Shown here: positions 1-38,011 of the stretch, piece after piece | Layout of the letters: each line of letters begins with the position of its first letter | Numbering within the stretch: the stretch's first letter is position 1 | Source: Camelus dromedarius | Lineage: Eukaryota | Direction: 5' to 3' | Length of the DNA stretch: 64,000 bases | Assembly (NCBI RefSeq): GCF_036321535.1 | Contig: NC_087436.1 | Span: 43,278,001 to 43,342,000 of the forward strand | Program-made: the position numbers and the translations under genes | Notes under the pieces: generated by a model | The model's input: only the letters and a program-made list of their open reading frames with translations | Databases searched by the model: none | Told to the model about the DNA's origin: nothing

Positions 1-1562
1 ATTCAAATCCACAAAACAGGATAGAGTATTTTTTTCAATAACTGGCCAGCTTTCTTCTCAATTAATTACAAGGCTGAGGCTCTAAATTAAAAGAATTTTA
101 TGAGAATAAAGTACCTATTGGTGGGACACAACGATCCCACTACAAACCACTACAATATAGTTGCATTTTATTTAAAAAATCACCAAGAATATAATTAAAA
201 ATTTCTATATGAGGGATTAGTTCAGAAACTAAACCATGCATAATATGTAAGTCAAATTCAGGACATACATGTGTCTTCAATTTCTGTAACACTGCCTACT
301 AAAATTAGAGTGGTTATAAAGACACAGATGATGGTTGAAATTCTAATTATAAATGTTCTAAATTTTTAATCTGCCCTCTTTTAAAATGCAATCCAATCGG
401 GACTGCTGTCATATCATGGAATTCATGTCTTTCAACCGTAGGAAATAAAAGATAAGTAACTGTCTTTACACTAATGTTTTGATTTTAGAATTTCTAGCCA
501 AAAATATATTTAATTAGCAACTGAGTATGTTGGGTAATTGTTATCAGAAAAAAACAACTCGGCATCAACTGGACTTAACACCAAAATGTTTTATCTTGTG
601 AATGTGAGCTAACATATAAATTAATCATATTTTAAATGGCAAGTGATAAATAAACCCATTCAATAGGACTCAGCTAACTCCCTGAGAATATACTTTGCAG
701 TTAACCCATTTTGGTGAGTCCTTCAAGTTATGTTTCTAAAATTCAAATTTCCCCCAGGAGCTACACTAATCCTCTTCCCGCTTACCAAAGTCAATTAGCA
801 ATAATGGCCCACATTCCAAAGGATGTTTTGTTGTTAGATATTTTTTCACTTTGTGCAGGTGGGAAGGAGGTAGATATGCAAAACAGGTCACACCTTTTAT
901 GTTTGGGTTCAAATACAGGACAGAGCCTGGTACTTTCCCAGTAGTGCCTCCTATACATACAGTGTTTGAGGCACACAGGTCTTTTTTTGTATCACAGCAT
1001 AAGATACTGTCAGTTTCTGCATTTATTAGAACACTCATCATGAGTGTACTGAGTTCTGACCAAAGAGTGTTCTGAGATAACTTATATTGAACAGAAACAT
1101 GAACTATCCATTCTGCAAGATTAGTATCAGGGTAGATGGTCAGTGACATCACCAAAAAGCAATGTACCTCGGGCATGTTATCTCTATCCACTACAGAAAT
1201 GGCTTCACTGCATCGTGAAATATTACTACACATTTGGTTTTCATATAAAGCAGATATAAGAAATGTCCATTTGAGCAATATTAATGTCCTTATGTCTATT
1301 TTATATGGGATCTCTTGATGAATTATAGTTGAGTTCAATAACAGGAAAAAGTTTAGAATAGGAAAAGCCTCTATGCTTGTTTTCACTAATCTTTAATTTA
1401 GGAAAATTGCATAATTCAATGTGTTTGGCTTTTTTCACTAGTTTACAGGAAACATAGCATAAATTCAGTATCCATCAGAATTAAGTAACACAAGTCCTTA
1501 TTCCTCTCTTCTTTTTACTTCATTTTGCTTTTGTCTTATTTAGTTTCATTTTTAAATACTTC

Positions 1563-1692
1563 TTTTTTGGTGGAGGGAGGCAATTAGGTTTATTAATTTA
1601 TTATTTTTTTTTTTTAATGTAGGTACTGGGGATTGAACCCAGGATCTTGTACATGCTAAGCACACACTCTACCACTGAGCTATATCCTTCCC
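1563..1692 (-). mobile_element. tRNA-derived SINE (Vic-1-like, camelid type)
   Basis: Minus strand GGGAAGGATATAGCTCAGTGGTAGAG (A box) ... CCTGGGTTCAATCCCCAGTACC (B box), A-rich spacer, AACCTAATT motif and A tail. TTTCATTTTT occurs on both sides. Confidence 0.88.
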
Positions 1693-1696
1693 TTTC

Positions 1697-2034
1697 ATTT
1701 TTTTTAAATTTAAGTAGAGTTGATTTACAGTGTTGAGTTAGTTTCTGGTGTACAGCATAGTGACTCAGTTATACATACATATATGTATTCTTTTTCATAT
1801 TCTTTTTCATTATACATTATTATAAGCTACTGAATATAGTTCCCTGTGCTATACAGTAGGACCTTGCTGTTTATCCGGTTTTGTGGAGTTTTTTTTGTAG
1901 CTTTGCTGTATAAGATCTTCTGCCAGAGTTCAGCAGGTATTCTGTGAGAATTTTTCCACATGTCAATATATTTTTGATGTATTTGTGGGAGGAGATGAGC
2001 TCTGCCTCCTTCTATTCTGCCATCTTGAAGCCCC
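1697..2034 (-). mobile_element. Bipartite L1 element: L1 5'UTR start (2034-1875) fused to L1 3' terminus (1874-~1705) plus polyA
   Basis: Minus strand starts GGGGCTTCAAGATGGCAGAATAGAAGG...CCCACAAATACATCAAAAATA, typical of a laurasiatherian L1 5' end. It continues into ATAAACAGCAAGGTCCTACTGTATAGCACAGGGAACTATATTCAG, homologous to the L1 3' ends at ~15737 and ~37826 in this window. Confidence 0.8.
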
Positions 2035-2669
2035 TTCTTGTATCATTTTTAATAATATCAGAATTACAGAACACAAGTGAGTATGTGTATGTATATGTTG
2101 TGCCACCAATACTTTATTGTAAAACATTTTCAGTCCTTTGGTATCTTGAAACAGCACTATGCCAAGTGCTATGCTCACTTAGTTTCATGTACTCCCTGTC
2201 TTGCAGGATTTATAGACAACAACTATACTTTTATTAACGTGGTTGATGGTAATTAGACTGCTCAGTGACTCAAAATACTGACAGATATTTTGGGAAAAAC
2301 TTAGAAAATTTTAAATGATTTAAAAATCAAAAACAAAATGTTAAGAGAAAAATCCAAGAATTAATTAAACCTGAAAAACAGTATGCAAAGCAGAGAATTA
2401 ATATACTCAGTGTGCTTGAGAATAAAAGTCATTGGTATTATAATTCTACTGAAGCAAATCTGGAGGAAAACAGATAAATAGGCAGTAAAAAGAATTTAGA
2501 TGAAGCAATGAAAGTGAACCCTTGTCACTGAGTTAAAGAAGATTTGGAAATCTTTCCTTTTACAGTTGTTAAAAGGTTGAATGTTTCTTATTTCTATGCA
2601 ACTGACTGAATGTGTCTGGGGAGAGGGTTTCGTTTTTCTTTCTTCCCTTCTTTTTTATCTTTTATCTTG

Positions 2670-2699
2670 CTTCTTCTTCTTCTTCTTCTTCTTTTTTTT
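2670..2699. repeat. (CTT)n / polyT tract
   Basis: Directly visible. Confidence 0.9.
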
Positions 2700-2936
2700 G
2701 TGAAGGCAGTGTGGTCACCTGGAGGCATAATAATGTGGTGTTGGGAATGATAAGAAATGCAAACTTGTCCTTGCTCAGCTACTAACCAGAAGTGTGGATC
2801 TGGGCAAATCACCTAACCTCTCTGTCCTCTAATGGTCTTATCTGTGAAGAATAACGATGATGATGAAAAATGATGACGATGACAATAAACAAACATTTAT
2901 GAGCACCAGTTATGTGCTAAAGTCACTGCTTTAGCC

Positions 2937-4510
2937 TTTTTTGAGAGGATGGGGGGCAATGAATGTAAATTTACTAGAACTGTTTTGGGGAGGATGGGTG
3001 AAGGGACAGTTGTGAGTTTTCCACACAGAACTGCAGAGAGAAGCCAGTGCCCAGCCAAGAGGGAGTGGGTGTCTGGCCACAGATCCTATCTCTGGCCCAG
3101 TGTCTTCTCCTTCTGCTTCTTACACGCAATGTCCAGATTCCAGTCCTTGCACGGATGCTGATGCAGCTGGGTGGGGCGCAAGCCTACATACTTCACATTT
3201 ATTTCACACAGGGTGTGAACACTGTCACTGGGGTCCTTAAAGCTAAGGAAGTCATAGCCCTTAGTCTTGACCATGCACTTGTCAGGGATCACGTTAGCCT
3301 CATGCAAGGATGGGAAGGGGCTAAAGGTGAGTTCCAAGATGTCAGTTCCTCTTCGTTGCCAGATCCCCACAGGAGATCTGAAGTCATCTGCATCCCACTC
3401 CAGCAGGCTGATGTCCTCCCGGCTGCTCCCAGTTGCCACTGGAATGTTATGTTTCAATTTATCCAGCTTTACTTCCTTCTATCCTCACCCCAGGGCTCTG
3501 GGATCTAGAGAGCTGTGAGGCCAGGGCAGGGGGTCTGGGACCACAAACACTGGGACCAGGAGTTCAGGAATGCACAGTAGGCCTGGCAGACTGCTTCTAG
3601 CAGGAGGGACAGGGACTCAGGCAAAGCCATGGTCAGAGCCAGTGGTAGCCAGGATCCAAAGTCTGCAGGACTAGCTAGGGTGGCTTCTGCCCCTGCAGCC
3701 ACCAATGTACCAGGCTCCTCCAGCCCAGCTGCTGCCACCACCACTGCCTCCTCCTTCTCTTGCAGAATCAGTCCCAGCTCTCAACACCCAGCTCTTGGGT
3801 TGTTGCTGGGTCTTCTAGAGGAGGCCTCAGGGCAGCCATGGAGCCCAGAGAAGGGTCCCAGCACCCCGAGCCATCAGTGGCAGCATTAGAGGTGGCCCAG
3901 GGGTTGGTCCAAGCAGAAAAGGGGCCCATGAGGGCCTGGTGAGGGGGCCACAGGGCCATGGGGTGAGGACCACCTGCTGCAGAGGAAAGAGCAGAATGTG
4001 CTCTCTGTAGCACATGGAAGACTAAGGCTGGATGTGAAGTAGGACCCCTCTGGGGGGCCACAGCTGCTCTGGCAGGAATGTGGCTTCTCAAGCCTCTAGA
4101 CTGTCTAGGTGACTCCAATCACCAAATGCACCTGAGTCCACAAAAGGAGGGTCACCTATCTTGGGAGGAACCCCTGTGGCTGCAGCAGCTGTGTGGGTCT
4201 AGAGAGTCTGTTTGACCTGCTGGTGTTGGCTATAATCATTGGGCAGATCACAGGAACTGCTGGGATCACAGCAGCGACTCTACTGTGGGGACTGTGGGCA
4301 CCATGGGTGCCGCAGGCATACCAGTTGGAATTCTGGTTATGAGAGCCCCAAAACTTCCTGCTCAAACAGGGCCATCTCTGCCTCCATCTCTTTCAAGCAC
4401 TCCTTGCTGCCCTTGCCCGAGTGCCGGGGCCAGGGCCCAGGACCACGGGTCCTCTCGAACCCGGGAATCCCAGAGCTGTCCTGCCAGCTGCTGCCATTGC
4501 TGTGGCAGCA
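2937..4510 (-). pseudogene. RBM42: Processed pseudogene of RNA-binding motif protein 42
   Basis: Frame-shifted ORF pieces match RBM42 end to end with no introns: LKEMEAEMALFEQEVLG, RAAVAPQR..HVLQRA.SALSSAA, GSMAALRPPLE, VVAAAGLEE, SLLEWDADDFR, KTKGY.F.SFKDPSD, KKQKEK (RRM C-terminus). ATG at 4497-4495, stop near 3086, then 3'UTR-like sequence, a degenerate polyA signal (AGTAAA, ~2970-2975) and an A6 remnant (2937-2942). Confidence 0.93.
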
Positions 4511-7500
4511 ACCTGAATAGTAACCAACCAAAGCAGGCTACTATTGATAAGTCTTTGATATTCGCTTTATGTAAATTAATGTTAATAAAATAATATGAAC
4601 TTGAGTCTTTTGAAACAACCAACAAATATTTATTGAGCTGGCTTATTGGAAACAAAGTATTGATTGGGCCTGTACATCTGTGAGTCCCAGGCAAGATGTC
4701 ACCCTGACCTACAATTTTTAGAATAATGCTATTTCTATATAGTATCATTAAAATGACTAAATATACCACATAGTTTAAAAAAATAAGGTCTTAATACAAC
4801 TTTAAAACAGCCATGTGCACATTATCCACCTTGAGGGGCAGAGATATCTTTTTTGTTTAGCACTCTTATTAAATTTTTATAAAATAATATTATAACATTT
4901 TGTTTACCATCAAATTTTACAATAAGGTTTGTTCTCCATTTCTCGTGCTGATTTTATGAGATATTTTGTCCATTGATTGCTCTTCTATGATCATATAAAA
5001 CCAGTGGATTAAACCTCAGGTAGAACAGATAGTCAATAAAAACCTGACAGAACCATTTGAGCACTAGTTACATTTCTGGCACATATGGAAAAGGTGTGGA
5101 TTAGTCCCGCTGGAAAAGTTGAGGAACAGATTATAAAAGATACAGCTAAACACCCATGGAGGTTAAATGATTGCACCAAAATGCATTAAACTGTTTTGCA
5201 TCTTAGGACAAATCTATAACTAATATACACGTGCCAGTTAATCAGTAAGCTCAGCTCTAGGTGTGAGGTTCTAACAAATTCACATACATTCCTAACTCTC
5301 TCCTTCTGTTTTCTATCACAGAGATTTGGTTAAAGATGAGGAATTGAATGGAGTATTTTTGAGTCTAATATATAATGTTTACCTGGGTTGGGAATATTAT
5401 TAATTTGTGCAGACATGATTATTTTAAAAAGAATTTTGAATTCTAATGAAAGCTAAAAAGCAAACAGGAACCTGGTCCACTCATAGTCATTCTATCAACA
5501 ATTCAAAAAGCTGCTATTTTACTACTGAGTTTTAACTCTCTTAATTTAAATGTCACTTTCACATGGTCTCCTTTCTTTGATTAAGTTAATTTTATGAGAA
5601 ATGATAGATACAATTATTTCTTTAGCATTTGACTTAACATGTGCTAAAGCAAAACATCCGATTTAGCATGAAGCTCAAAGACAGCAAACTATTTGAGCTA
5701 CTTACCATAAATAGTCATGGTTTAAAGAGATTTAAACATTAAATTTAAAAGTCAGCAGCAAATTATTTAAATAATAACTGAAACTTATTAGAGTTTATTC
5801 TCATGTCAGGCTTGGTTCTAAGTTTTTAATTGCATTAACTCATTTAACTCTGAATCGAACATTATGAGTTAGGAGCTACTCAGTGATTCTAGCTCACAAG
5901 CTGCACTCTTAACCCCTACAGTTAAAAAAATAAAAAAGCTATGGACCCTGTATTATAATCCTATTTCACTTTCTTTAGACTTCAGTTTCTCATTAACTCT
6001 ATTTGATATTCTTCAGAATAAAAATATCCCCATCTCTCATAATAAGTCAGCAATTAAGGAGAAAATTATTTGCCTTAGTCTTCTAGACATATAATCTCTA
6101 AATGTATCAAAATTAGAAAGGAATTCTATAATGAATTCTAGAATGTTATAGTATCATATCCATGCCAAGCTTAGCTGTTTTAATTTAAAGTAAAAATGGA
6201 GGAAAAGGGTTTGGTTGTTGATCCCTTAAGTTACTTACAGTAATAAAATTCTGTGGCTCTTAGCTGACAAGTAATGAGAGTATAATTTCCAGAAGATTTA
6301 AAGAAAACATCTACGAGACTGTCTTCTCTTTGTATATTTATCACTGGCTCATTTCACATTTACATCAACTCATCTTAAAAGAGGGCATTAAAATCATGGA
6401 TTTTCTCCTTCCAATACAGAATTTATCAAGATCATCAAGCAGGGGAAGGAGTGTGTATCAGAATCAACCAGTAACCTTTTTTAAAAAAATGAAATGAGAA
6501 AATTCCCTAGTGGGGCAGCCTGAAGTGGATATGTGGGCCAAGAGTGAGACTGAAGTGAGAGAGAGATGGATGGGTGGGGTCTCAAAGGGGGGGAAGCAAG
6601 AAGGGAGAATGGAACCTAAAAAGGTTCTAGACCTTATCCCAGTATGTGCTGTGTCCTCTGACCCATAATGTGGCACAAGAGAGGAAACAGTTTTGGATGA
6701 AATATTATGTTCAGATAAAAACATGGTACAGAGTTTTAAATGAATATAGATTAGAGAAAGCTTAAATTCAATAAATAATAACTGAATATCAAAAAATAAC
6801 TGAATATCAATTATTCACCTATTAAAACTTTTTTGAACTTTTATTGTATGCCAAACATTGTGCTAGGAACCAAGTACATTTCAAGGTACTCATACAAAAA
6901 TCTTGTCATGTTATTAGAGAATTACAATGACTTCTAATCTCCCCTCCCCCCTACACACACTTTTAACAATTTTAATTAAAAATAAGCCAAATTTGGCTTG
7001 CTGGAGTCTAAAAGAACATGGGAAGAGTGAGGAGGAAGCCATCAAACAACAAAAGTTAGCTTATAGGAGTCTTCCAAGTACCACACCAACACTCTGCTCA
7101 CCATCATTATAAAATAATTCCTGGAAATTGCATTCGGTATCAATTTCAGGTTTGTCTGATACACAAGCTGGTTTAGTCACTTTATCCTCTGAACGGTCAC
7201 AAAATTTGTTTCTTTCCACAACTGATTGTGCTTTGTGTTTCCTGTTTATCTTCCCCACAAGGCCTCCCATGAAGAAAAGTCAAATCTATTCACCTTTGTA
7301 ACCTCTACCCCTAACACAGTGCCTAGCACAAGAGGAAGATACTTCAGGCAATATTCCTACAATGGACGAGCTAATGAATAGTACATACCACGCAGAGGCA
7401 CACGGGAGTTTGCTTACTTCCTCCAGTCACTGTACATTTTGTCAGTAAATGTGGTCAGTGCATGGACAAGTCAGGCACAAATACACCCATCTCTGGCCTT

Positions 7501-15357: not shown

Positions 15358-15942
15358 CTATTTACATTAGCCAAGACATGGAAACAACCTAAATGTCCAA
15401 CGACAGATGACTGGATAAAGAAGTGGTAAATTTATACAATGGAATACTACTCAGCCATAAAAAGTAATAAAATAATGCCATTTGCAGCAACATAGATGGA
15501 CCTAGAGATCATCATTCTAAATGAAGTAAGCCAGAAAGAGAAAGAAAAACACCATATGATATCATTTATATGTGGAATCTTTAAAAAAGAGAGACACAAA
15601 TGAACTTATTTACAAAACAGAAACATACAGACATAGAAAACAAACTTACAGTTACCAGGGTTTTGGTGAAAGGGGGTGGGAAGGGATAAATTGGAAGTTC
15701 AAGATTTGCAGATACTAACTACTATATATGAAATAGATAAATAGCAAGTTTATACTGTACACCACAGGGAACTATATTCAATATCTTGTAGTAACCTATA
15801 ATGAAAAAGAATATGAAAGGAATATATGTATGTATATGTATGACTGAAACATTATGCTGTACATCAGAAATTGACACAACATTGTAAACTGACTCTATGT
15901 CAACTAAAAAACAAAAATTAAAAAATTAAAACAATAAATAAA
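15358..15942 (+). mobile_element. 5'-truncated L1 (end of ORF2, 3'UTR and A tail)
   Basis: AGCCAAGACATGGAAACAACCTAAATGTCC...ATGCCATTTGCAGCAAC... then an A-rich tail. 13-bp TSD TAAAACTAATTGG at 15345-15357 and 15943-15955. Confidence 0.93.
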
Positions 15943-16396
15943 TAAAACTAATTGGGGGTAAAGGAGGAATCATTTTGATTTTATCCTCTTATTTCTATAT
16001 CCCAAACTGTACCAGTTAGTTACCCCTGAGTAAAAGGCATATGGCAGACAAGAAAAGAAGCCAGAGTCTGGATAACCGGTTGATGATAAATGAGAAGTAA
16101 AACATCAATCTTGATCAACATTTCAGCTAAGGGCAGCCGAGATCATTTCACTGACAAAATTGATGTTCAATTATTGTTGATCTGTCTACTTTGCCAGCAT
16201 TATTAGCTCTAGATACAAATGTCTTTGAGGCTTCAAAAGTTGGTAAGGGAGCAAAAATGGACTTTCACCATTCTGAGTTGATGCTATTTTAGTGAATTTC
16301 AGAAGGACAAAAAAAAATGTTGGACTCTTGGAATATATGCATTGATACTAAGTGTGTCTTCAGTGTGTAATGCAGAGCCGGCTGCCGTGTTCTTAC

Positions 16397-16498
16397 CTGG
16401 TTGCAGGTATTGATGTCTATGCCCCCCTTCAGGTATTCCACTACTTTGTCTAGATTGCCGGCTCTGGCAGCGCGGAGAAAGCTTGCATTGCTGTCAGA
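16397..16498 (-). CDS. ANK2: Ankyrin-2 (ankyrin-B) internal coding exon (canonical exon 2, start of the ANK repeat region), 34 codons, phase 0/0
   Basis: Translates to [34 protein letters not shown], which I recognise as ankyrin-B. On the minus strand it is flanked by a polypyrimidine tract and acceptor (TCTTTCTTTCCCCCTCACAG|TCT) and a consensus donor (CAG|GTAAGA). Length is 102 nt. Confidence 0.97.
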
Positions 16499-19400
16499 CT
16501 GTGAGGGGGAAAGAAAGACCTTTAGTGAATTATTGATAAAATAAAAACAAATCAAAGGTAGAAAGACAAGAATGTTTAAACTTCACACCAGAAAAGCTTT
16601 AGTTGCAAAAGATTTCAATCCTGAATTTGAAACACTGAATAATAACTCACAGTACAAGGTAGCAACTTCACAGTATTTCTAGAGAGTTGTTCAAGGACAT
16701 TAAAGTCGGTGGGAAATATATGCTTATTAAACAGTGTAAAAGAACGATTATAATAAAAATAATTGTTATGCTGTATTCTAAATCTTTACCCACATTTGAA
16801 GATGAATTTACACGACCCCCAAATCCACTGTTTCCCATTCATTTTAGCTTCAGGAAGCTAGTGAATTTATACCGAGCCTAGTAAGACAAAAGGGAAATAA
16901 AAAACAAAACAAAACTATAAGAAATGAAAGGCACTGGGTTTCTTCTTTCTCTTCCTTTACTGTTTGGTTTTCGGATGTATCTGAAGGAGAACACTGAGCA
17001 TGGGTAACTTGGCAGTCATCTGTCCTCATTATAAAGGAATAACAGAAAGCTCCGAGGAAGCTTTGAGGAAAGCGGATAGCACTAGTTGGCAGGTGTGGAC
17101 TGGCCCGATGCAAATTTTGTGATCCTGGTGATTTTGGAAAAACAAGATTAAATTTAAACCAGCTGACATAATACCAGACTGAAATCTCTGGGTAAAGATG
17201 ATCACTCTGGATGGAGACTGCTTTTTAAGTCCTCATCTTGCCTTTACTCCTCTCAAAATCTGATCCTGGGTGAATCAGCTGAATTTCACGCCCGCCAGAA
17301 AAGTCCTGGAGAGGCTCCTCCAGAGGTGTAGCCACCTTCACCCTGCCTCTTTGTCTCACTGACAAAGCCTGCCTTTCGAACTTTAACACAATAACGATGA
17401 TGAACTTTTGCTAGGTTCCAAGACACTGGCATCACTTTATAGCTCTTTTTGTAGTGTAACATCTGACTAACGAGAAAACTAAGAGGAAGTGAGACGCCGC
17501 AGGTGGGACGGCTCTGAATCCAGTGTTCTCCTCGGTCGGCTCCCCTGCCTGCCTCCCTCCCTTGAAGAATGTGCTTGGAAAGGGCCCTTGGCACATGCTG
17601 TCAGACCCATTTATCATGACTGGTGATGATGTCCAGAGATAGCAGTGGAAGCGTTTTGTCCAGGAATCTCAAATACGGAATCATTCACATACTGTTAAAA
17701 TGATTTACACAGGGGAAGACTGAAAACCCAAGGATGAAATCCCCTCACATTTAACCCAAATACCACAAAGGTTTATATATTTACAAATCAGATAGATAAT
17801 TTACAAGGAGTTGTCAGGTACGACTGAACTCTACACATCTGGAATTGGTGTCTGAGTCTTCAGAAATGTATCACGGCATGACTAACACTGTACTGTTCCT
17901 CCTCCCTGCACTGTGCCTCACGCTTCATCCTTCCTGAAAGCTGTGCCCATGGCAGGGTGCCCCCAGTGTATCTGCAAAGCTGCAGCGACCGAATTGTGAC
18001 TCAGTGCAAAATGCCTATTCTAGGAAAGGATTTTGCAGTTTGCAGCAAATTCTAAATTTCAGGAAGATTTTCTGCCCTCTGGTTTCTTGCCACAGCACTC
18101 AAAAGTGAAATGTAATACAATGTATTATGTTATGTCAATATCCCACAAGAAACATTATTTACTACAAAATGACAACAGTGAAATAATATTAGGTCACAGA
18201 AAGTATGACAATATTCTTTTCCGTATATAGTTAAAAAAATAAATCCATGGGCTATATATTATATGGTAAGGCCTAGAAAGTACCACTTGTACAGGAGGCT
18301 TAATGTTATAGGTAACATTTGAGTGTTTACTGTAGGGCAGGCACAGAGCTAAGAAGTCACATGCACTATATCATTAATACAGTAATACCAGGAGGAAGGA
18401 ACTATTACACTGCTCATTTACTAAGTGAAGAAGGAAGTTTAGAAAATTTCCAAGGTCACAATTTTTCAGTGGATGATCTGAGATTGAACTCATGTTTATC
18501 AGCCTCAAAGCTAGTCTTTGCTGTTCTGCCTCACCCCTGCCGAGTATCACAGCAGATGTTCCTACAGAAACCTAACTCATGAGCTCTATGTTTATTTCGT
18601 TTGTGATAACCTCGGCATGCCCTTGGTCTACATACTCACTCTGTAAATCGTGGCACTTGCTAAATAGACTGCCTTAGCTGGAAAGAGAATTCTTGGCTGA
18701 TATCAAATCTATCAGCCATCTATGCACCTAGAAAAATGAAGAGCTGACTTGAGACAAACTACTTAGAACTGTATTCATTTGGGAATAAGGAAGGAGGTAG
18801 TAAAGTACACACTGCGCTAAAAAGCCAGCTGATTATCTCCCTTGACATGCCGAACATGGTAAAACGAACAAACCGAAGTCAGGGTGCCCTGTCACTCCTG
18901 TGGAAAAAGAAGGCCATGAACAGAGACAGAAGGGAGCACCTGACCCTGAAGGGATGCCGAAACACCTTGGAGACATCCTTTGGAAGCTTAAGGGGGGCAG
19001 TTGTCAGTCTGAAGGGTGAAGCTTTTGCTGTTACATAATAGCAAGCTTTCATAACGAGTTTTCCCTTTCCTGAATCAAACTCCTGAAAAGTAGATGCAAG
19101 TCAAAGACTTACAGCCAATCCCTGGAATTTTAGCAAAAACTTGTTCCTACTGTTTTGGAGAGGCTAGAGCCAGTGGAAATGTAACATCTGAGTCATCCTG
19201 CCAGGGACCTCCTCAACAGTTGACTCATGGTAGATTTTGCTATCAGTTGGTTTCTTCTAGAACCACATTAAGGGATTCAGTTTTCCCAAAGTGAGAAAGT
19301 GAGTTATAAATGCATTTTGCAAATGTAAATGCAAATAAGTGTGTTATAATAAAATGGTTCCAGAACACAGGATTCAAGAACAAAATTAAAAAGACTTCAA

Positions 19401-27760: not shown

Positions 27761-30700
27761 AAACTTCGGGGAATTGAATTTAAGGGTTTATGGAAAAGGA
27801 GAACTTAAGGAAAACTTGGAGACATCTAGCTCTGGCATGTAACGAGTGACGCAATTAACCCAGACCAGAAATTTGGGGAAACAGTACCCTAAAACTGGAG
27901 AGAGCAGAATGGTTTGGTTTTGGTCTGATAAAATGCAAGACTGACACATCCAAGAGAGGGTATTGATTACAGACACAGGACATAGAATAACCTCTGGGAG
28001 ATGGCCTGGTTTTTTGCAGTGATACTGGATTTTGCTTCACTCCTTACCATTTCTCTGTCCATAAAACTCCTAATATGGAAGCACTTCTTGTGCTGCCTCT
28101 GGAAGCAAATACTGTCAACCTATCAATATCGTGCGTGAACTGCCAGGAAGTACTGATAAAATAAGTGCAATGTATATGTATACTGCAGCATATGTATGTA
28201 TGTATATATATACCAGTAAGATTAAAACAGAATTCTGTACAGGAGACTTCTCACGTGCTCAGAATACTAACATCATGCAGCTGACATTTCCCCATAAGAT
28301 CAGTATACAACAGAGATCCACAACTTTATCCACAATGGATGTGACCTGCTGTGACTTTCTAAGTTTACCCTTGTGCTATGAACTGTAATTGTCTAGAATG
28401 GTTTGAGATATTCAACTCTAACTCCATGCAAGGTAAAGAGCTTTTGTAATTTTACACTGAAATGGAAAAGATAGGGTGAAAAACTGGCTTTAAAAAAAGA
28501 ATGTGTCTAATTAATTACAGTACATAACACATGGCAGTGGGAGAAGGTGAGCAATCAAGTATTTGTAGCTTGCACTGCCCTTTTTTTTTTTTTTTTTTTA
28601 ACATTTTAGCTCATACTACAAAATCCCTCTGTTGGAAATCAGTCAATAAAAACCCCTCTAGTTACTATTGCATTTCAGAGAATATCTGAACTTCTTCTGG
28701 GGAAGCTTTCAAAACAAATTCTTGATTTGTTGGGGGTAAACGCATTGGCATCAACTCCAAAGAGAATATTGAAAAGTAAGGAAACTCCTAATTTAAACAT
28801 AACTAAAAACAAAAGTAGGGTTAATTCATCTTATGAAACTAAGCTTTGGTTCAGATGCCCAAGACCATTTAAAAAAAAAAAATCGGGCTTAAGCCAGGTT
28901 TAATGAGAAATGGATAATGCTTTGCTAGTTGTTTTTTATTATTTGACTTCTACAAGAATTTGGGTTAAGTGGACCCTGTGAGTCTTCCCCCAGAGGCTTG
29001 GGATAGCTTCTTCACAGCACCCTCCCAACTTATCCTCTCCCCTCAAGTCTGACCACGTTCCTTTACTGTGGGGCCCCAATACACCCTGAGCACGCGGTCA
29101 TTCATAAATGTTTGTTGATTACTAGTTATAAGCACAACACTGCACTAGGTGTTGTGAATGGCTCTAGCAAGAGCCCCAGATTAGCTGTTTACTTATCTAT
29201 CTCCCCAACCAGCCTGGCCTTTCAGGGTAGATGAGGTCATGACTTACTCCTCTTTGTGTCTCCACTTCTGGGCACAGCACCCAACACAGAGTAGATCAAT
29301 AAATACTTGGGGACATAAAACAAAATAAAGGAAGAAGTTCAACAAAGTAAAATTGGCCAAATAGACACATGAAGCAGCATCAGTCAATATGAATAAAACG
29401 AGTGAGAAGTTCGGTGAATCAAGTAAATTTTTTCAGACTTACTAGATTCTAAAACTTGGTTTCAAATCCTGATTAGCAAAATTTATAGCTGTTACGTTAA
29501 TTCTTAAGCCTTTACAATTCTATCAGATAACCACAATAAGCCGCATCATGCCTGTCCCTTCTGAAGGGTAAGTGAGTGAAGAGTAATGGGTAAAGATGAC
29601 CTCCATCTGTATCTTAATCTTCTGGTTGAAGTTTTGGGAAAACTATTGTACTTAGCAATGGAATTGATTAGATAGGCTTTGGAGCTCAACATTCTCTGAC
29701 CTTAATTAGCTTAACAGATAATTGCCAACTACAACATTAGTAAAGAAATTAAATATAGAAAGAAATGGTATCTTACTGATACTAACTACAGAACCATTAG
29801 CATCCTGTTTTTCAGAAATAAACTATAATTCAGCTCTTCTCTGGGGGAAAAACTTTATATAAAGCAATAACAACTCTTTTATTATTGTATAAATCACCCA
29901 AAGAAGAGGGGAATTACTGAATGCATAACAACATGCAGTAATTTATTTCAATAGTCTCAGTAGTTACAGTAAGACTAACTAACTTCTAAATAAAAGATAT
30001 CATTGGTATGTTAAAAGACACAGAGGAGAGAGGCTGTTTTTCTTTTAGAATTATTATGCATATAAAATATGCCTCACTTCAGTCATATGGAACTATATAC
30101 TTAATTCTACCTCTACATTCTTATATAAATATCTACCTGTAACATGACATATAAAATTAAATTGTCAAATATATGTATATGTGTATGTGTGGTGTATGTG
30201 TATGAGTGTGTGTAGAGAGAGTCATATATTCCATCGGTCAGAATAAAATTATAATTTCACTTGAAGGCAGAAATCATATCTTATAATTCTAGAATTTCCA
30301 AAGCCTAGTTTAGTGCCTGAAATATACTAGCCAATAAAGAAGATTATGTTGACAATGGAAACTTGGGAAGAGCATTGTCATCTCTTTTAGTCTTATGCAA
30401 AGCTGACAAGAGGCAACATAAATACTAGTTATTCTAGCTTTAATTGCTCAAAAATTAAACTTAGAAAATAGCTTTAAAAGAGTTAGGTTACTTTTGTACA
30501 TACAAAAAGATAGCATTAGAACTTTTTTGCAAAGCAGTAGCTGTCTGTAGCTCAAAAGACCTCTTTTGTCCACCAAAATAAACTTAGTTGAAATGTCAAA
30601 ATTTTTCTTAAATATTAAAACTGTAAATACCTTATCACTGGCCCTTGACTAAGAACCAGTGGCAAGCTATCCAGTAATTAAAAAACAAAACTTGTGAAAC

Positions 30701-31366
30701 TAAAAGATGTTGAGGTTTTCATTCAAAAGATGTTTAGTCATAAATGACAAACCCCAGCTAACATCAAACTCAATGGTGAAAAGCTGGAAGTATTTCCTTT
30801 AAGATCAGGAACAAGACAAGGATGCCCACTCTCGTGACTTTTATTATAGCATTGGCAGTCCTAGCCACAGCAAACAGAAAAAGAAATAAAAGGAATCCAA
30901 AATGGAAATGAAGAAATAAAACTGTCACTATTTGCAGATGACGTGATATTATACATAGAAAATCCTAAAAACACCACCAGAAAACTACTAGAACTCATCA
31001 GTGAATTTGGTAAAGTTGCAGGGTACAAAATTAATACACAGAAATCTGTTGCATTTCTATACACTAACAACTATACACTATTAGAAACAATCCCATTTAC
31101 CATTGCATCAAAAAGAATAAAATACATAAGGATAAACCTAACTAAGGAGGCAAAAGACCTGTACTCAAAAAATTATAACCCTGATGAAAGAAACTGAAGA
31201 TGACACAACAGATGTAAAGATATACCATGCTCTTGGATTGGAAGCATTAATATTGTCAAAATGATCATACTTCCCAAGGCAATCTACAGATTCAATGCAA
31301 TCCCTACCAAAATACCAATGATATTTTTCACAGAACTAGAACAAATTTTTAAATTTATAGAAATAA

Positions 31367-31523
31367 GGGGGTAGGATATAGCCCAAGTGGTAGAGTGCAT
31401 GCTTAGCATGCACAAGGTCCTGGGTTCAATCTCCAGTACCACCTCTAAAAATAAATAAATAAACAAGTAAACTTAATCACCAACACCCCCCCCAAAACAA
31501 ATAAATAAATAAATAAATTTTTT
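31367..31523 (+). mobile_element. tRNA-derived SINE (Vic-1-like) nested in L1
   Basis: GGGGGTAGGATATAGCCCAAGTGGTAGAGTGCATGCTTAGCATGCACAAGGTCCTGGGTTCAATCTCCAGTACC followed by an (AAAT)n tail. TSD AATTTAT(A/G)GAAATAA at 31352-31366 and 31524-31538. Confidence 0.92.
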
Positions 31524-32254
31524 AATTTATGGAAATAAAAGAAAAGAGACATAAAAGCAAAGGAAATAAAAGCAAAAATAAACAAATGAGACCTAACTAA
31601 ACTTAAGAGCTTTTGTACAGCTGAAAAGACAACCTACTGAATGGGAGAAAATATTTGCAAATGAAATGACCCATAAGGGATTAATACACAACATACATAG
31701 ACAGATTATACAATTCAACATCAAAAAAACAAACAACCTAATTACAAATGAGCAGAAGACCTGAACAAACATTTTTTCAAAGAGGAATTGCAGATGGGCA
31801 ACAGGCAAATGAAAAGATGTCAACATCACTAATCATCTGGGAACTGAAAATCAAACCTGCAGTGAGATACCTCACACCTGGCAGAATGATAATCATCAAA
31901 AAAAAAAAACCCACAAATAACAAATTTTGGCAAGAATGTGGAGGAAAGGAATCCTTGTACACTGTTGCTGGGAATGTACACTGGTATAGCCACTGTGTAA
32001 AACAGTAGGTTTTCCAGAGATTTCTCAAAAAAATCTAAAAATAGAACTACCATATGACCCATCAATTACACTCCTGGGTAGATATCTGAAAAAACAAACA
32101 AACAAACAAACAAAACACTAATTCAAAAAGATACATACATTCCAATGTTCACAGCAGGATCATTTACAATTGCTAAGATATGGAAGCAACCTAAATGTTC
32201 ATCAACAGATGAATGGATAAAGATGTGGTTTATATAGACAATGGACTATTAAGT

Positions 32255-32255
32255 G

Positions 32256-32295
<40 letters not shown>

Positions 32296-32377
32296 TACAT
32301 ATGTGTGTGTATATATATATACACACACACACAGTATATATATATACATATATACATAGTGTATATGTATATACACA
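32255..32377. repeat. Compound (TG)n/(TA)n/(CA)n microsatellite inside L1
   Basis: Directly visible. Confidence 0.95.
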
Positions 32378-33920
32378 TGGAATACAACAGCCATAAAAAA
32401 GACTGAAATTTTGCCATTTGCAGCAACATGGATGGACCTGGAGGATATTATGCTAAGTGAAATAAGTCAGACAGAGAAAAAGAAATACTATATGATATTA
32501 TTTACATGAGGAAGCTAAAAAATACAATAAACTAGTAAATATAGCACAAAATTTAGCAGACTCACAGAGAACAAACTAGTGGCTATCAGCAGAGAGGGGA
32601 GAGGAGAGGAGCAATACAGGGATAAGGGAGTCAGAGGTACGAACTCTTATGTATAAAATAAGATACAAGAATATATTATACAGCATGGGGAATATAACCA
32701 ATATTTTATAATAACTGTAAATGAAGCATAACCTTTAAAATTGTGAATCACTAAATTGTACACCTGTAACTTATGTAATATTGTACACCAATTATACTTC
32801 AACAAAAAAAGTTTAGATGGTGCTGTTTCTGATTAGCAATGTGGGAACCCAGCACATAATGTGAAGCATGATGAAAGCTTGGGTATGTATTAAAATCCTG
32901 TGGCACCTCCACAGGATATAGCTCTTTATACCTGGAGAAGCTCAACTTGCATTAGGTCTCTTTCTCCCACATGGAAGAATTGCAGGATATTTTAGCAACT
33001 GAGTTTCCTTTAATAATAATATCTTTTCATGGATGTAAATACTAATTTAGTACAAATTATGTAAAGTAATCATTACAAAGATTTAGCCTGACCTAAAGCC
33101 TTTCTCTTCTGGTTATGTTTAAGTAAGAATTAATTGTATGTGTTTTGGTGGGGGTTACTACACTTTTTTTTTCGCTAAATTTTGTTTTAAGATAAACAAT
33201 TGTCAAAGACACACTAAGCAAGCAAGTCAATTCTTCATCATTTTTACATGATTCCTGTATATTTATATAGTTTAAATGATTTTTTAATTAAATGTAAAAA
33301 TATTTTCTTACAGAATATGAACTGACAAACACCGTATCAGAATTCTACATGCTTTTTGTTTTACGGTGTTCAACTACTCAAGAGACTACAGCATACAGTT
33401 TGCTTTGTGTGCATAAACCCCGACTACCCAACTAGCCTATAAATTCCTTGAAGGAATGAATAGTAGTTTGTACTTTTTGTATTTATTTCTCACACTTACT
33501 ACTGCAATATTTTTAATGGCTAATCCTACTGTATGACAAAACATTTATATTGTCATTTAATCCTCATAAGCCACCCAATTGAAGAAACTGAGCCTTAGTG
33601 AGATTAAAGTACTTGGATATTGAGTAATAAATGCCAGAGCTGAGATTGGTAGCCAGTCCAGAGGCCACAATCACACCACCGTGCAGGACACCACCTCCTT
33701 AGCTCTACCCAAAAGTGCCAAATACCTTTCCACTGTTGAATAACTTGTAGGAGTGTCTGCTGCTTCCTGTTCTGAGGAAAAGTTTCTGTGACCACATTCC
33801 TGGCCCCAGCAATCACATTCTGATTTTCCTGGATGCCCAATTCCTTTTCTTGTGCTGGGGGCAGGGCCTGGCCTAAAGTTTGAACCATGTGGCACTGACA
33901 CCTCTGGAATGTCAAGATTT

Positions 33921-34410: not shown

Positions 34411-36037
34411 GAATACTAAGATTTCTTTCCTTTAATGTTGCTAACCCAAGAGTTGTGGCTTTTAGGGACACAGTTATAGTACCTCAAAATATTCTTACAC
34501 ATTACACTCGACGAGTGAATTTAGAGCCATGTCTCTATCACCATTGTTACTATTACCATTCACAGGAAAAACATTTTCAAGTTTCCCAGCACAGCAGGCT
34601 TCAAAGACATTTGTTCCTCTGTTTTTAAAGCAGCATGCAGACTTTTACTAGCTTGTACTGACATACTTTCCTGAGTGGGATTTAAACCTGGACTGCTTCC
34701 AAGATGGATGAAACTCTCAGCTGTTCTTAATTAATCACCATACCCGCTATTTAAATGTTGATTACACCTATAAGAAATGATAATAGTCTTATTTTCACAG
34801 TAAAAATTTAATAAGGATCTACTCATAAAAAGTCCTCCCTTCAAATCAATTGAAAAGCTAATTAAGTGTAAAACATTAAAATAATAAATTGTTATGAAGC
34901 CTAAAAAATACACCTATTCCATTGGAGCATTTGTCTAGAACTATATAACTTTCTACACTCTTTAACTCCTTTTTTTTATTCTTATAGTCTCCCTCCCTAT
35001 TAAAAAAAAAAGGTAGTGGGATCATTAAAAAACATACATATTCTCATAGAACATTTTTAAATGAATTTAAAAAAACCCACAATCAGCCAGCAGCAGTAAA
35101 TCCCATTACTCAAACTTAACAGTGCATGTTTTGATGTATTTTCTTTTAGAATTTTTCTACATGTACACTATATATGTGCATATAATTGATATTTTTACAA
35201 AGTTGGGATAATACTCTGTCTTCTACTTTTAAAAAGTAACATTACCAAGTAAGTATTGCCTACAACATTTAAAAGTTGTTTAAGATACTCTAAATCTCAT
35301 ATAGTGGTTTCTGGATGGATTATAACTGGTGTTAGCTTTCCCTAATCATTTGTACCACTAAAGCTTTTGTTTTCATTGTTGTCAAGAATGCTACGATTAA
35401 AAGCTATTTACCTAAATCTTTGTCCTTGTCTTGATTATGCCCATTGTTTAAATTCCTAAAGGTGGAATAATGATGTTAAAGGATGTAAATTCTTGGTACA
35501 TATTGTAACATTGCAAAACTATTCTTGAGAGAGGCTGATGCAGAAGATGCTACCATGACTGTTTGTGGAAGAGCCTGTCTCCACTCAATGACGTGCTCAA
35601 ATTTGCTCTGCTCAATAGATACGTATATCATTATGGTTTGGATTTACCTTTTTTCATTTTTGAAGAGTTTAAAAACTTAACCATACATTTTATGTCTATT
35701 ACAATTTTTGTCTTCTTTGACTTGTCCACATTTTTTGTCCTTTTAGAGTTTCAAACATCTTTTTTATTTTTAAAAACTCCACATAGACAAGAAAACATTT
35801 TGCCATATTTGTTGCAAATTTTTCCAAGTTTATGTTCTTTTTAATATATCTTTTGACTTTTATTAAAAGTCAATATATCTCTTGACTTTTAAATTATATA
35901 AATTGAAAAGTGTAAGCTTCTACTTTTAGATTTTTATTCCATTGCTTTTATTCCTTTCAACCCTGAAATCAGTAAAAAAAAAAACTTCTCTTCATTTTCT
36001 CCTGGCTTAAAAAACAAAACTTCTTTTTCTATTTAAC

Positions 36038-36532: not shown

Positions 36533-37040
36533 AGTAAACTTTAATACTTGATTCACAGAGCTATTATCAGAAGAAATGAAACTTAGATCTGTAAATGGTG
36601 TGTAGAGCATCATTACAGAATCTAGGAAATAACAGGAGCTCAAAAAATGATGGCTATCATTATCAGTAATTAATATAGAACCCCCTGTACATTCTACATT
36701 TCTTTTATTTCTTTTTTTGTATTTTCCTGCTATTTCCCATATCTAATTCAACTGTTGATCCTGAGTAGAAAAGATCTAGTCCCAGTGCCAAATCAAGTGG
36801 TTAGCACTAGACAAGAAAGCAGCCCAGAATCAATAACTTGGCTCACAGTGTCATGGCTGGGGTCTAACACAGCTGTAACTGCATGGGTCACATTTTTAAC
36901 AGGAATGGAAACTGACATGTTCATCTGGATCACTGTTTAATTCTTCAAAGAATAAATTGGTGAGTTTACACAAATCAACACCAAAGACTGATTCTTTCAT
37001 CTGTATTATATATCATGTAACAAAAGAAAGAAAGAAAGTG

Positions 37041-38011
37041 CAAAACAAACAACCCAGTCTAAAAATGGACAGAAGACCTAAATGAGCAATTTTGCAATGA
37101 AGACATGCAAATGGACAACAGGCAACATGAAAAAAATGCTCAAAGTTGCTAATTATTGGAGAAATGCAAATTAAAACTACAATGAGGTATCACCTCACAT
37201 CAGTCAGAATGGCCATCATTTAAAAGTCCACAAACGATAAACGCTGGAGAGGGTGTGGAGAAAAGGGAACCCTCCTACACTGTTGGTGGGAATGTAGTTT
37301 GGTACAGCCATTATGGAAAACAGTATGGAGATTCCTCAAAACACTAAAAATAAACTTATCATATGATCCAGCAATCCCACTCCTGGGCATATATCCAGAA
37401 GGAATCTTAACTCAAAAAGACACACGCACCCCAATGTTCATAGCAGCACTACTTACAATAGCCAAGACATGGAAACAACCTAAATGTCCATTAACAGATG
37501 ACTGGATAAAGAAGTTGTGGTATATTTATACAATGGAATACTACTCGGTCATAAAAAATAATAAAATAATGCCATTTGCAGTAGCATGGATGGACATGGA
37601 GAATGCCATTCTAAGTGAAGTAAGCCAGAAAGAGAAAGAAAAATACTATATAACACTTATATGTGGAATCCTAAAAAAAAAAAAAAAGACAAACGATCTT
37701 ACAGAAACAGAAACAGATTCACAGACATAGAAAATAAACTTATCATTATCAAGGGGGAAAGGGGGTGGAAAGGGATAAATTGGGAATTCAAGATTTGCAG
37801 ATACTAATTAATAAATATAAAATGGATAAACAACAAGGTTATACTGTATAGCACAGGGAACCATATTCAATATCTTGTAGTAACTCGTGGTGAAAAAGAA
37901 TATGAAAAATATATTTATATTCCTATATGACTGAAGTATTGTGCTATACATCGGAAATTAACAGAGCACTGTAAACTGACTATATTTCAATAAAAATATA
38001 TTTTTAAAAAA
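37041..38011 (+). mobile_element. 5'-truncated L1 (ORF2 C-terminus and 3'UTR)
   Basis: ORF 37299-37730 ([13 protein letters not shown]...[12 protein letters not shown]...PMFIAALLTIAKTWKQPKCP...W) is the L1 ORF2 C-terminal segment. AAGAAAGTG is repeated at both ends. Confidence 0.95.

Follow-up and report, generated by a model that had tools for sequence, protein, structure and literature searches.

The window analysed here, a 64-kb stretch of DNA with a GC content of 36%, contains an exon of the host gene ankyrin-2 and, downstream of it in an ANK2 intron and in gene orientation, the remnant of an L1 element. The remnant is dead sequence and does not suggest a host function. The features on which the analysis is based are given below with their coordinates in the window.

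2040-2050, minus strand: candidate left target-site duplication of 11 nt, preceded by an endonuclease-type TT/AAAA site; 10/11 identical to 1553-1543, a weak match.
1875-2034, minus strand: L1 5'UTR head, 160 nt; exon 1 if spliced, left part of the host L1 if nested.
1874-1875, minus strand: junction; aligns with the GT-donor position of L1 5'UTRs and, in the majority of matching 3'UTRs, with the base that AG precedes.
1706-1874, minus strand: L1 3' end, 169 nt, non-coding; from alignment to window copies and read/contig mapping.
1698-1705, minus strand: A-tail remnant, read from the sequence.
1554-1692, minus strand: tRNA-Ala-derived SINE, presumed vic-1-like, a later insertion; 10-nt duplication at 1702-1693 and 1553-1544.
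1490-1546, minus strand: right flank in register with post-donor L1 5'UTR, which it resembles; its two motifs lie at 1538 and 1504.
15700-15915, plus strand: 3' end of an unrelated L1 insertion, used for comparison; AG at 15735-15736, TACTAAC 18-24 nt upstream.
16394-16504, minus strand: exon of the host gene; its translation matches the first ankyrin repeat in ankyrin-2.

The initial annotation had described 160 nt of L1 5'UTR joined directly to about 170 nt of L1 3' end, with ORF1 and ORF2 both missing. This layout was confirmed. On the minus strand the 160-nt head (2034-1875) adjoins the 169-nt 3' end (1874-1706) without filler at the 1875/1874 junction, and ORF sequence is absent between and within the two pieces while both ends of a LINE are present. 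Separate target duplications for each half, which would contradict a single element, were not seen at the junction. On the 5' side, 2039-2035 may be the purine leader of the L1. The opposite end, which had been placed at 1697, turned out not to be clean, since the SINE at 1692-1554 splits the L1 A-tail, and past the SINE the flank is similar to L1 5'UTR. The 10-nt duplication flanking this SINE is perfect, and the SINE is presumably vic-1-like. In the available text of PMC3531059, vic-1 is a simple SINE of camels. The tRNA-Ala SINE heads of the window, which is mammalian DNA, point to a camelid. Further tRNA SINE copies lie near 31400, 36100, 46000, 47350 and 55730, and broken L1 ORF2 and 3' fragments were seen at 30700-32800 and 37000-38000 (plus strand). 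The window also holds a copy of RBM42 resembling a processed pseudogene (3086-4600, minus strand), in which the frame 3089-3478 matches RBM42 residues 351-475 (E 1e-32); the GC-rich frames beside it probably hold the rest of this copy.

In order to identify the 5' piece, we used the translation across 2039-1830 in a profile search, which gave 93 matches among 1.84 billion representatives. All except P0006, P0030, P0032 and P0067, which look unrelated, are open frames over the same L1 UTR head (89/93); most of the protein matches are frames that happen to be open across related UTR heads. The word-index protein searches gave 1 match each. Read depth on the 5' piece is about 140-215 per base at roughly 1x coverage (run X24), and the pig L1B/L1C consensus heads, as displayed in the supplement of PMC6501411, read like the 5' piece. 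A second L1 5'UTR was not found in the 64-kb window; the candidate at 35141-35188 was a weak match and was rejected as A/T-rich chance. A microRNA at 1966-2034 (plus strand) was also rejected, as Rfam mir-9235 scores 34.2 bits against a cut-off of 95. The mir-9235 family may itself stem from an L1 5'UTR.

A GT donor after the 5' break had been proposed in the initial annotation, and this was borne out for part of the relatives. GT stands right after the base homologous to 1875 in 8/8 of the pig heads displayed in PMC6501411 (L1B1-5, L1C1, L1C3 and L1C13) and in both antisense-frame translations (P0002 and P0108), whereas the bases after the break in the related sense translations, as read by eye, are GT in 8/15, GC in 2/15 and AT in 5/15. 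The 15 translations counted are those whose frame fixes both post-break bases; the others end earlier, fix one base or are unrelated. Translations of the P0001 type, which end in G-stop, were left uncounted because they are compatible with unspliced and joined forms alike. Four of the 93 relatives (P0056, P0064, P0066 and P0078) exit the 5'UTR at this same base into one common downstream sequence. All four come from ENA contigs and the upstream flanks differ in at least three of them. The shared exit base suggests that the donor is used, and these sequences, which belong to another L1 lineage, look like a candidate intra-5'UTR spliced or deleted derivative, or a subfamily. Continuation into an L1 3' end was found in 0/93 translated relatives. 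Another group (P0063, P0071, P0086 and P0092) diverges about 25 nt earlier, each into a different sequence, possibly at a second break point or donor.

The 3' piece is 80% identical to 15736-15914 and 76% identical to 37824-37996. Nikaido and Okada reportedly described in 2000 the CetSINE/ARE repeats, abundant short cetartiodactyl L1 3' fragments that were once taken for SINEs. The 3' piece is probably of this kind; CetSINE/ARE repeats are not known to carry a 5'UTR head. An AG immediately before the 3' break had been reported for the 15.7-kb copy, and it is present there (15735-15736). Among the four window copies alignable at this point, the dinucleotide is AG at 15.7 kb and 34 kb, GG at 37.8 kb and AA at 41.3 kb; a fifth and a sixth stretch gave no useful alignment at the break. 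We then consider the mapping of reads and contigs at 80% likeness in 4 of the 24 listed runs. Loose ends at 1875 read ...AAAATAG before the 3' piece in 4/4 runs, two with contigs (863 and 1006) and two with reads (33 and 7556), ATAAAATA preceding the shared G in each of them, with the mapped reads weighted toward the most numerous subfamilies, which are not necessarily those of the parent L1. AG is the majority type among the matching L1 3' ends of this organism. No loose end at 1876 occurs among the six places listed per run, which indicates that GG-type ends are a minority. The AG is common among reads and contigs, present in two of the four window copies and absent from the pig L1B 3' ends displayed in PMC6501411, four of which are GG while the fifth is of another type without AG. 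The acceptor region is 44% pyrimidine and has no pyrimidine tract (15.7-kb copy). A branch-like motif can be seen in 3/4 window copies, as a perfect heptamer at 15.7 kb (15713-15736, plus strand) and in similar form in the 37.8-kb and 34-kb copies. By eye, the donor-side and acceptor-side sequences are alike over about 17 nt.

The junction seems to recur at other loci. Among the contigs listed (16 of about 62,000 pieces), three non-self contigs cross 1875, namely X1 record 7 (1848-1991, 21 differences), X5 record 14 (1848-2001, 27 differences) and X5 record 15 (1851-1991, 21 differences), all with only 24-27 letters on the 3' side, below the 31-letter threshold. X1 record 7 and X5 record 15 are probably one locus, and the listed contigs would then represent two other loci. 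According to a hand estimate, the differences at 1886-1968 use up most of the mismatch count of these contigs, so that an unspliced continuation would not fit. The 5'UTR-type letter at 1889 is found in 10 contigs in X5 and 4 in X1, and 9 contigs over 1886 in X5 have one common variant letter. Contig joints at single-copy depth were also seen at 1783-1919, 1814-1913 and 1864-2009, two of them in both contig runs. These hint at other L1 head-to-tail fusions, at other or undefined points.

In order to have a measure of copy number, we used the raw depth of X24 (about 1x). Beside the junction, at 1887-1903, about 15 reads cover each base, against 136-215 across the head and a maximum of 25,600 on the 3' piece. 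At 1878, 97/168 reads do not carry the 3'UTR letter, a value that was taken as a loose ceiling. Among sequences with a likeness of 80% or more, this suggests a few to some dozens of junction copies and a maximum of about 100. The idea of a SINE-like family is not supported at scale, given the difference in depth between the junction and the 3' piece, and for copies with this likeness the X24 depth gives no indication of amplification to high numbers. Pattern scans for the junction gave 0 matches in viral contigs, a collection poor in mammalian DNA that has no bearing on copy number. In metagenome contigs there were 8 matches, all just the 19-25-nt pattern in unrelated sequence, and in genome contigs 2 matches, both of the 25-nt pattern in bacterial records; blastn against plasmids and phages gave no match. 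These three collections likewise hold little mammalian DNA.

The right flank, at 1546-1490, looks like a continuation of the same 5'UTR past the donor, resuming after the tail without an indel, and this points to a 3' fragment nested in a resident 5'UTR, without splicing. Two motifs of the pig heads (at most one mismatch each, 12-35 nt apart) co-occur once in 128 kb, at minus 1538, where 0.005 such matches are expected. When the 80 nt around this place were shuffled by dinucleotides, they were matched in 0/20,000 shuffles and in 36/20,000 at two mismatches, the two motifs having been picked post hoc, after the resemblance of the flank was noticed. A profile built from the translations of 10 relatives has its maximum at 1543, in register, with rank 8-9 of about 127,900 positions and 94/20,000 shuffles. 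With an A-rich background, however, the same profile ranks the flank only at about 2,000-2,600, in the top 2%. Weak tblastn matches of P0058, P0090 and P0057 lie at 1570-1484 (E 0.03-0.05, for a 1.7-kb subject). A rough likelihood ratio for a real 5'UTR continuation is 500-4,400, with assumed divergences and before corrections for post hoc choice and prior.

Target duplications do not discriminate a single from a nested insertion. The 11-nt candidate around the whole element matches at 10/11 positions, but five of its letters are the same as the tail, and a 16-nt version matches at 12/16, a value reached by 2831/20,000 shuffles. For a nested insertion, the candidate is 1881-1872, which matches the first 10 nt of the right flank at 7/10.

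The explanation that we favour, at a confidence a little short of even, is that the element arose in one insertion from an L1 RNA of SpIRE-like kind that had lost its ORFs by splicing. For the recurring junction as a class, an origin by splicing appears likely. Under a splicing origin, an old cetartiodactyl-type L1 would have been transcribed from its own 5'UTR promoter. The spliceosome would then have linked the GT donor that follows nt 160 with an AG some 170 nt upstream of the poly(A) tail, with removal of ORF1 and ORF2, as the dinucleotides suggest. Since both ORFs are gone from the element, mobilisation must be in trans, and ORF2p from another L1 would have inserted the 330-nt RNA at the TT/AAAA site in the ANK2 intron, with the 11-nt duplication. 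The landing of the tRNA SINE in the tail afterwards can be read directly from the locus. Repeated independent splicing of parent L1s would be expected to give a low-copy recurrence of the junction, and the 5'UTR-like right flank would be a chance match in A-rich DNA. Splicing is favoured by the GT and AG in relatives, the recurring contigs, the exits at the donor base in 4/93 relatives, the 10/11 duplication and the lack of filler, and it is weakened by the flank match, the 7/15 relatives without GT, the GG-type 3' ends, the lack of a pyrimidine tract and the failure of all 93 relatives to reach a 3' end. The proposal of the initial annotation that an L1 RNA was spliced and retrotransposed is thus partly supported, by the dinucleotides in relatives and by the apparent recurrence, but not by the flank, which looks like a continuation of the 5'UTR, as nesting predicts and splicing does not.

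When a 5'-truncated L1 is nested with microhomology at its junction, its 3' end and tail lie inside another repeat and the target resumes after the tail. An event of this kind, in which the 3' end of a second L1 inserted into a resident L1 5'UTR piece of about 210 nt and splicing is unnecessary, is a serious possibility that we still hold to be less than probable. Priming would have used the AAAA run that precedes the break by 8 nt, about 170 nt would have been copied, and the process would have finished by annealing to the 3'UTR-like target. The product would be the head, the 3' end, the tail, a duplicated 8-10 nt and the remaining host 5'UTR. The in-register flank match without an indel agrees with this order, as do the tblastn matches at 1570-1484, the 7/10 duplication, the AT after the break in 5/15 related UTRs (as on both sides here) and the likeness of the donor-side and acceptor-side sequences over about 17 nt. 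However, the host L1 must end after about 210 nt and its duplication was not found (best 11-12 of 16), the truncation must coincide with a GT/AG position apparently common to other loci, and the right copy must begin with four consecutive changes. The post hoc motifs and the top 2% rank of the profile with an A-rich background also count against it. Unlike ordinary nested L1 insertions, the present one would have a very short host piece and a break that coincides with splice dinucleotides. We judged the combination of a very short host, an insertion here and a truncation at this base to be some thousand times rarer a priori, and this rarity and the likelihood ratio of the flank roughly cancel. 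About a quarter of the weight given to nesting belongs to a variant in which the incoming cDNA was that of a spliced RNA and was completed on the resident 5'UTR through perfect homology.

The similar tracts at both breaks would also permit a template switch or microhomology deletion, in which ORF2p copies the 3' end and jumps to a similar 5'UTR tract of the same or another L1 RNA within one insertion. The GG-type 3' ends, which give an exact overlap of 2-3 nt, and the poor acceptor context are in line with such a switch; AG is nevertheless dominant in this organism, the crossover falls exactly at GT and the right flank is left unexplained, and we regard the switch as unlikely. Even more improbable, with a chance that we would call slight, is a non-spliced founder of a small non-autonomous family. 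A nested structure whose transcripts start at the L1 promoter and stop at the inserted tail would have seeded the other junction copies, and this locus would be either that founder or its read-through daughter. It would unite the flank evidence with the other junction contigs, and the variant letter common to 9 X5 contigs over 1886 would fit it. On the other hand, GT and AG become coincidences, variants common to other contigs at 1886-1906 are missing from this copy, and a second tail after the flank is not present.

Several known systems are comparable to the element. In the available text of Larson et al. 2018 (PMC5860796), SpIREs are spliced integrated retrotransposed elements of human L1 and make up 131 of 6,609 full-length L1s (about 2%). 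The element resembles them in an internal deletion bounded by presumed parental GT and AG, a tail, a candidate duplication and a low copy number. It differs from the intra-5'UTR as well as the 5'UTR/ORF1 classes given there, in which ORF2 is kept, by having no ORFs and an acceptor in the 3'UTR. The accessible text of Kojima 2018 (PMC5786205) describes ORF-absent bipartite LINEs (RIME, NARTc, Bov-A and RTESINE), which like the element retain just the 5' and 3' LINE ends. Those families are amplified, arose by internal deletion and are traced there to RTE, Ingi, Vingi and R2 alone, whereas the element is an L1 of low copy number. HAL1 (half-L1), according to the same text, is similar in being a non-autonomous L1 derivative with both ends; identity with it was rejected because HAL1 keeps ORF1 and the element has no ORF1 between its pieces. 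Splicing is not mentioned in the available text of PMC8605555. We found no published 5'UTR-to-3'UTR spliced L1 of cetartiodactyls in the open literature, and Repbase or Dfam may already catalogue the family. A small ORF-less bipartite camelid L1 family that propagates from its own copies through the retained 5'UTR promoter, whether made by splicing or by a nested founder, seems doubtful to us.

If the element is nested, it is a dead repeat of the ordinary sort and would illustrate that GT and AG at a junction can mislead where the regions of the two breaks look alike. If it is spliced, it would extend SpIREs from trimmed leaders to the loss of all coding sequence, in an L1 lineage outside the primates. 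Such RNAs would then be mobilised in trans at a low rate, and L1-derived ORF-absent bipartite elements are not named in the available text of Kojima 2018 (PMC5786205). A self-propagating family, if true, would make L1 one more of the few LINE clades reported to have such elements and would represent an escape from the 'dead on arrival' fate of SpIREs.
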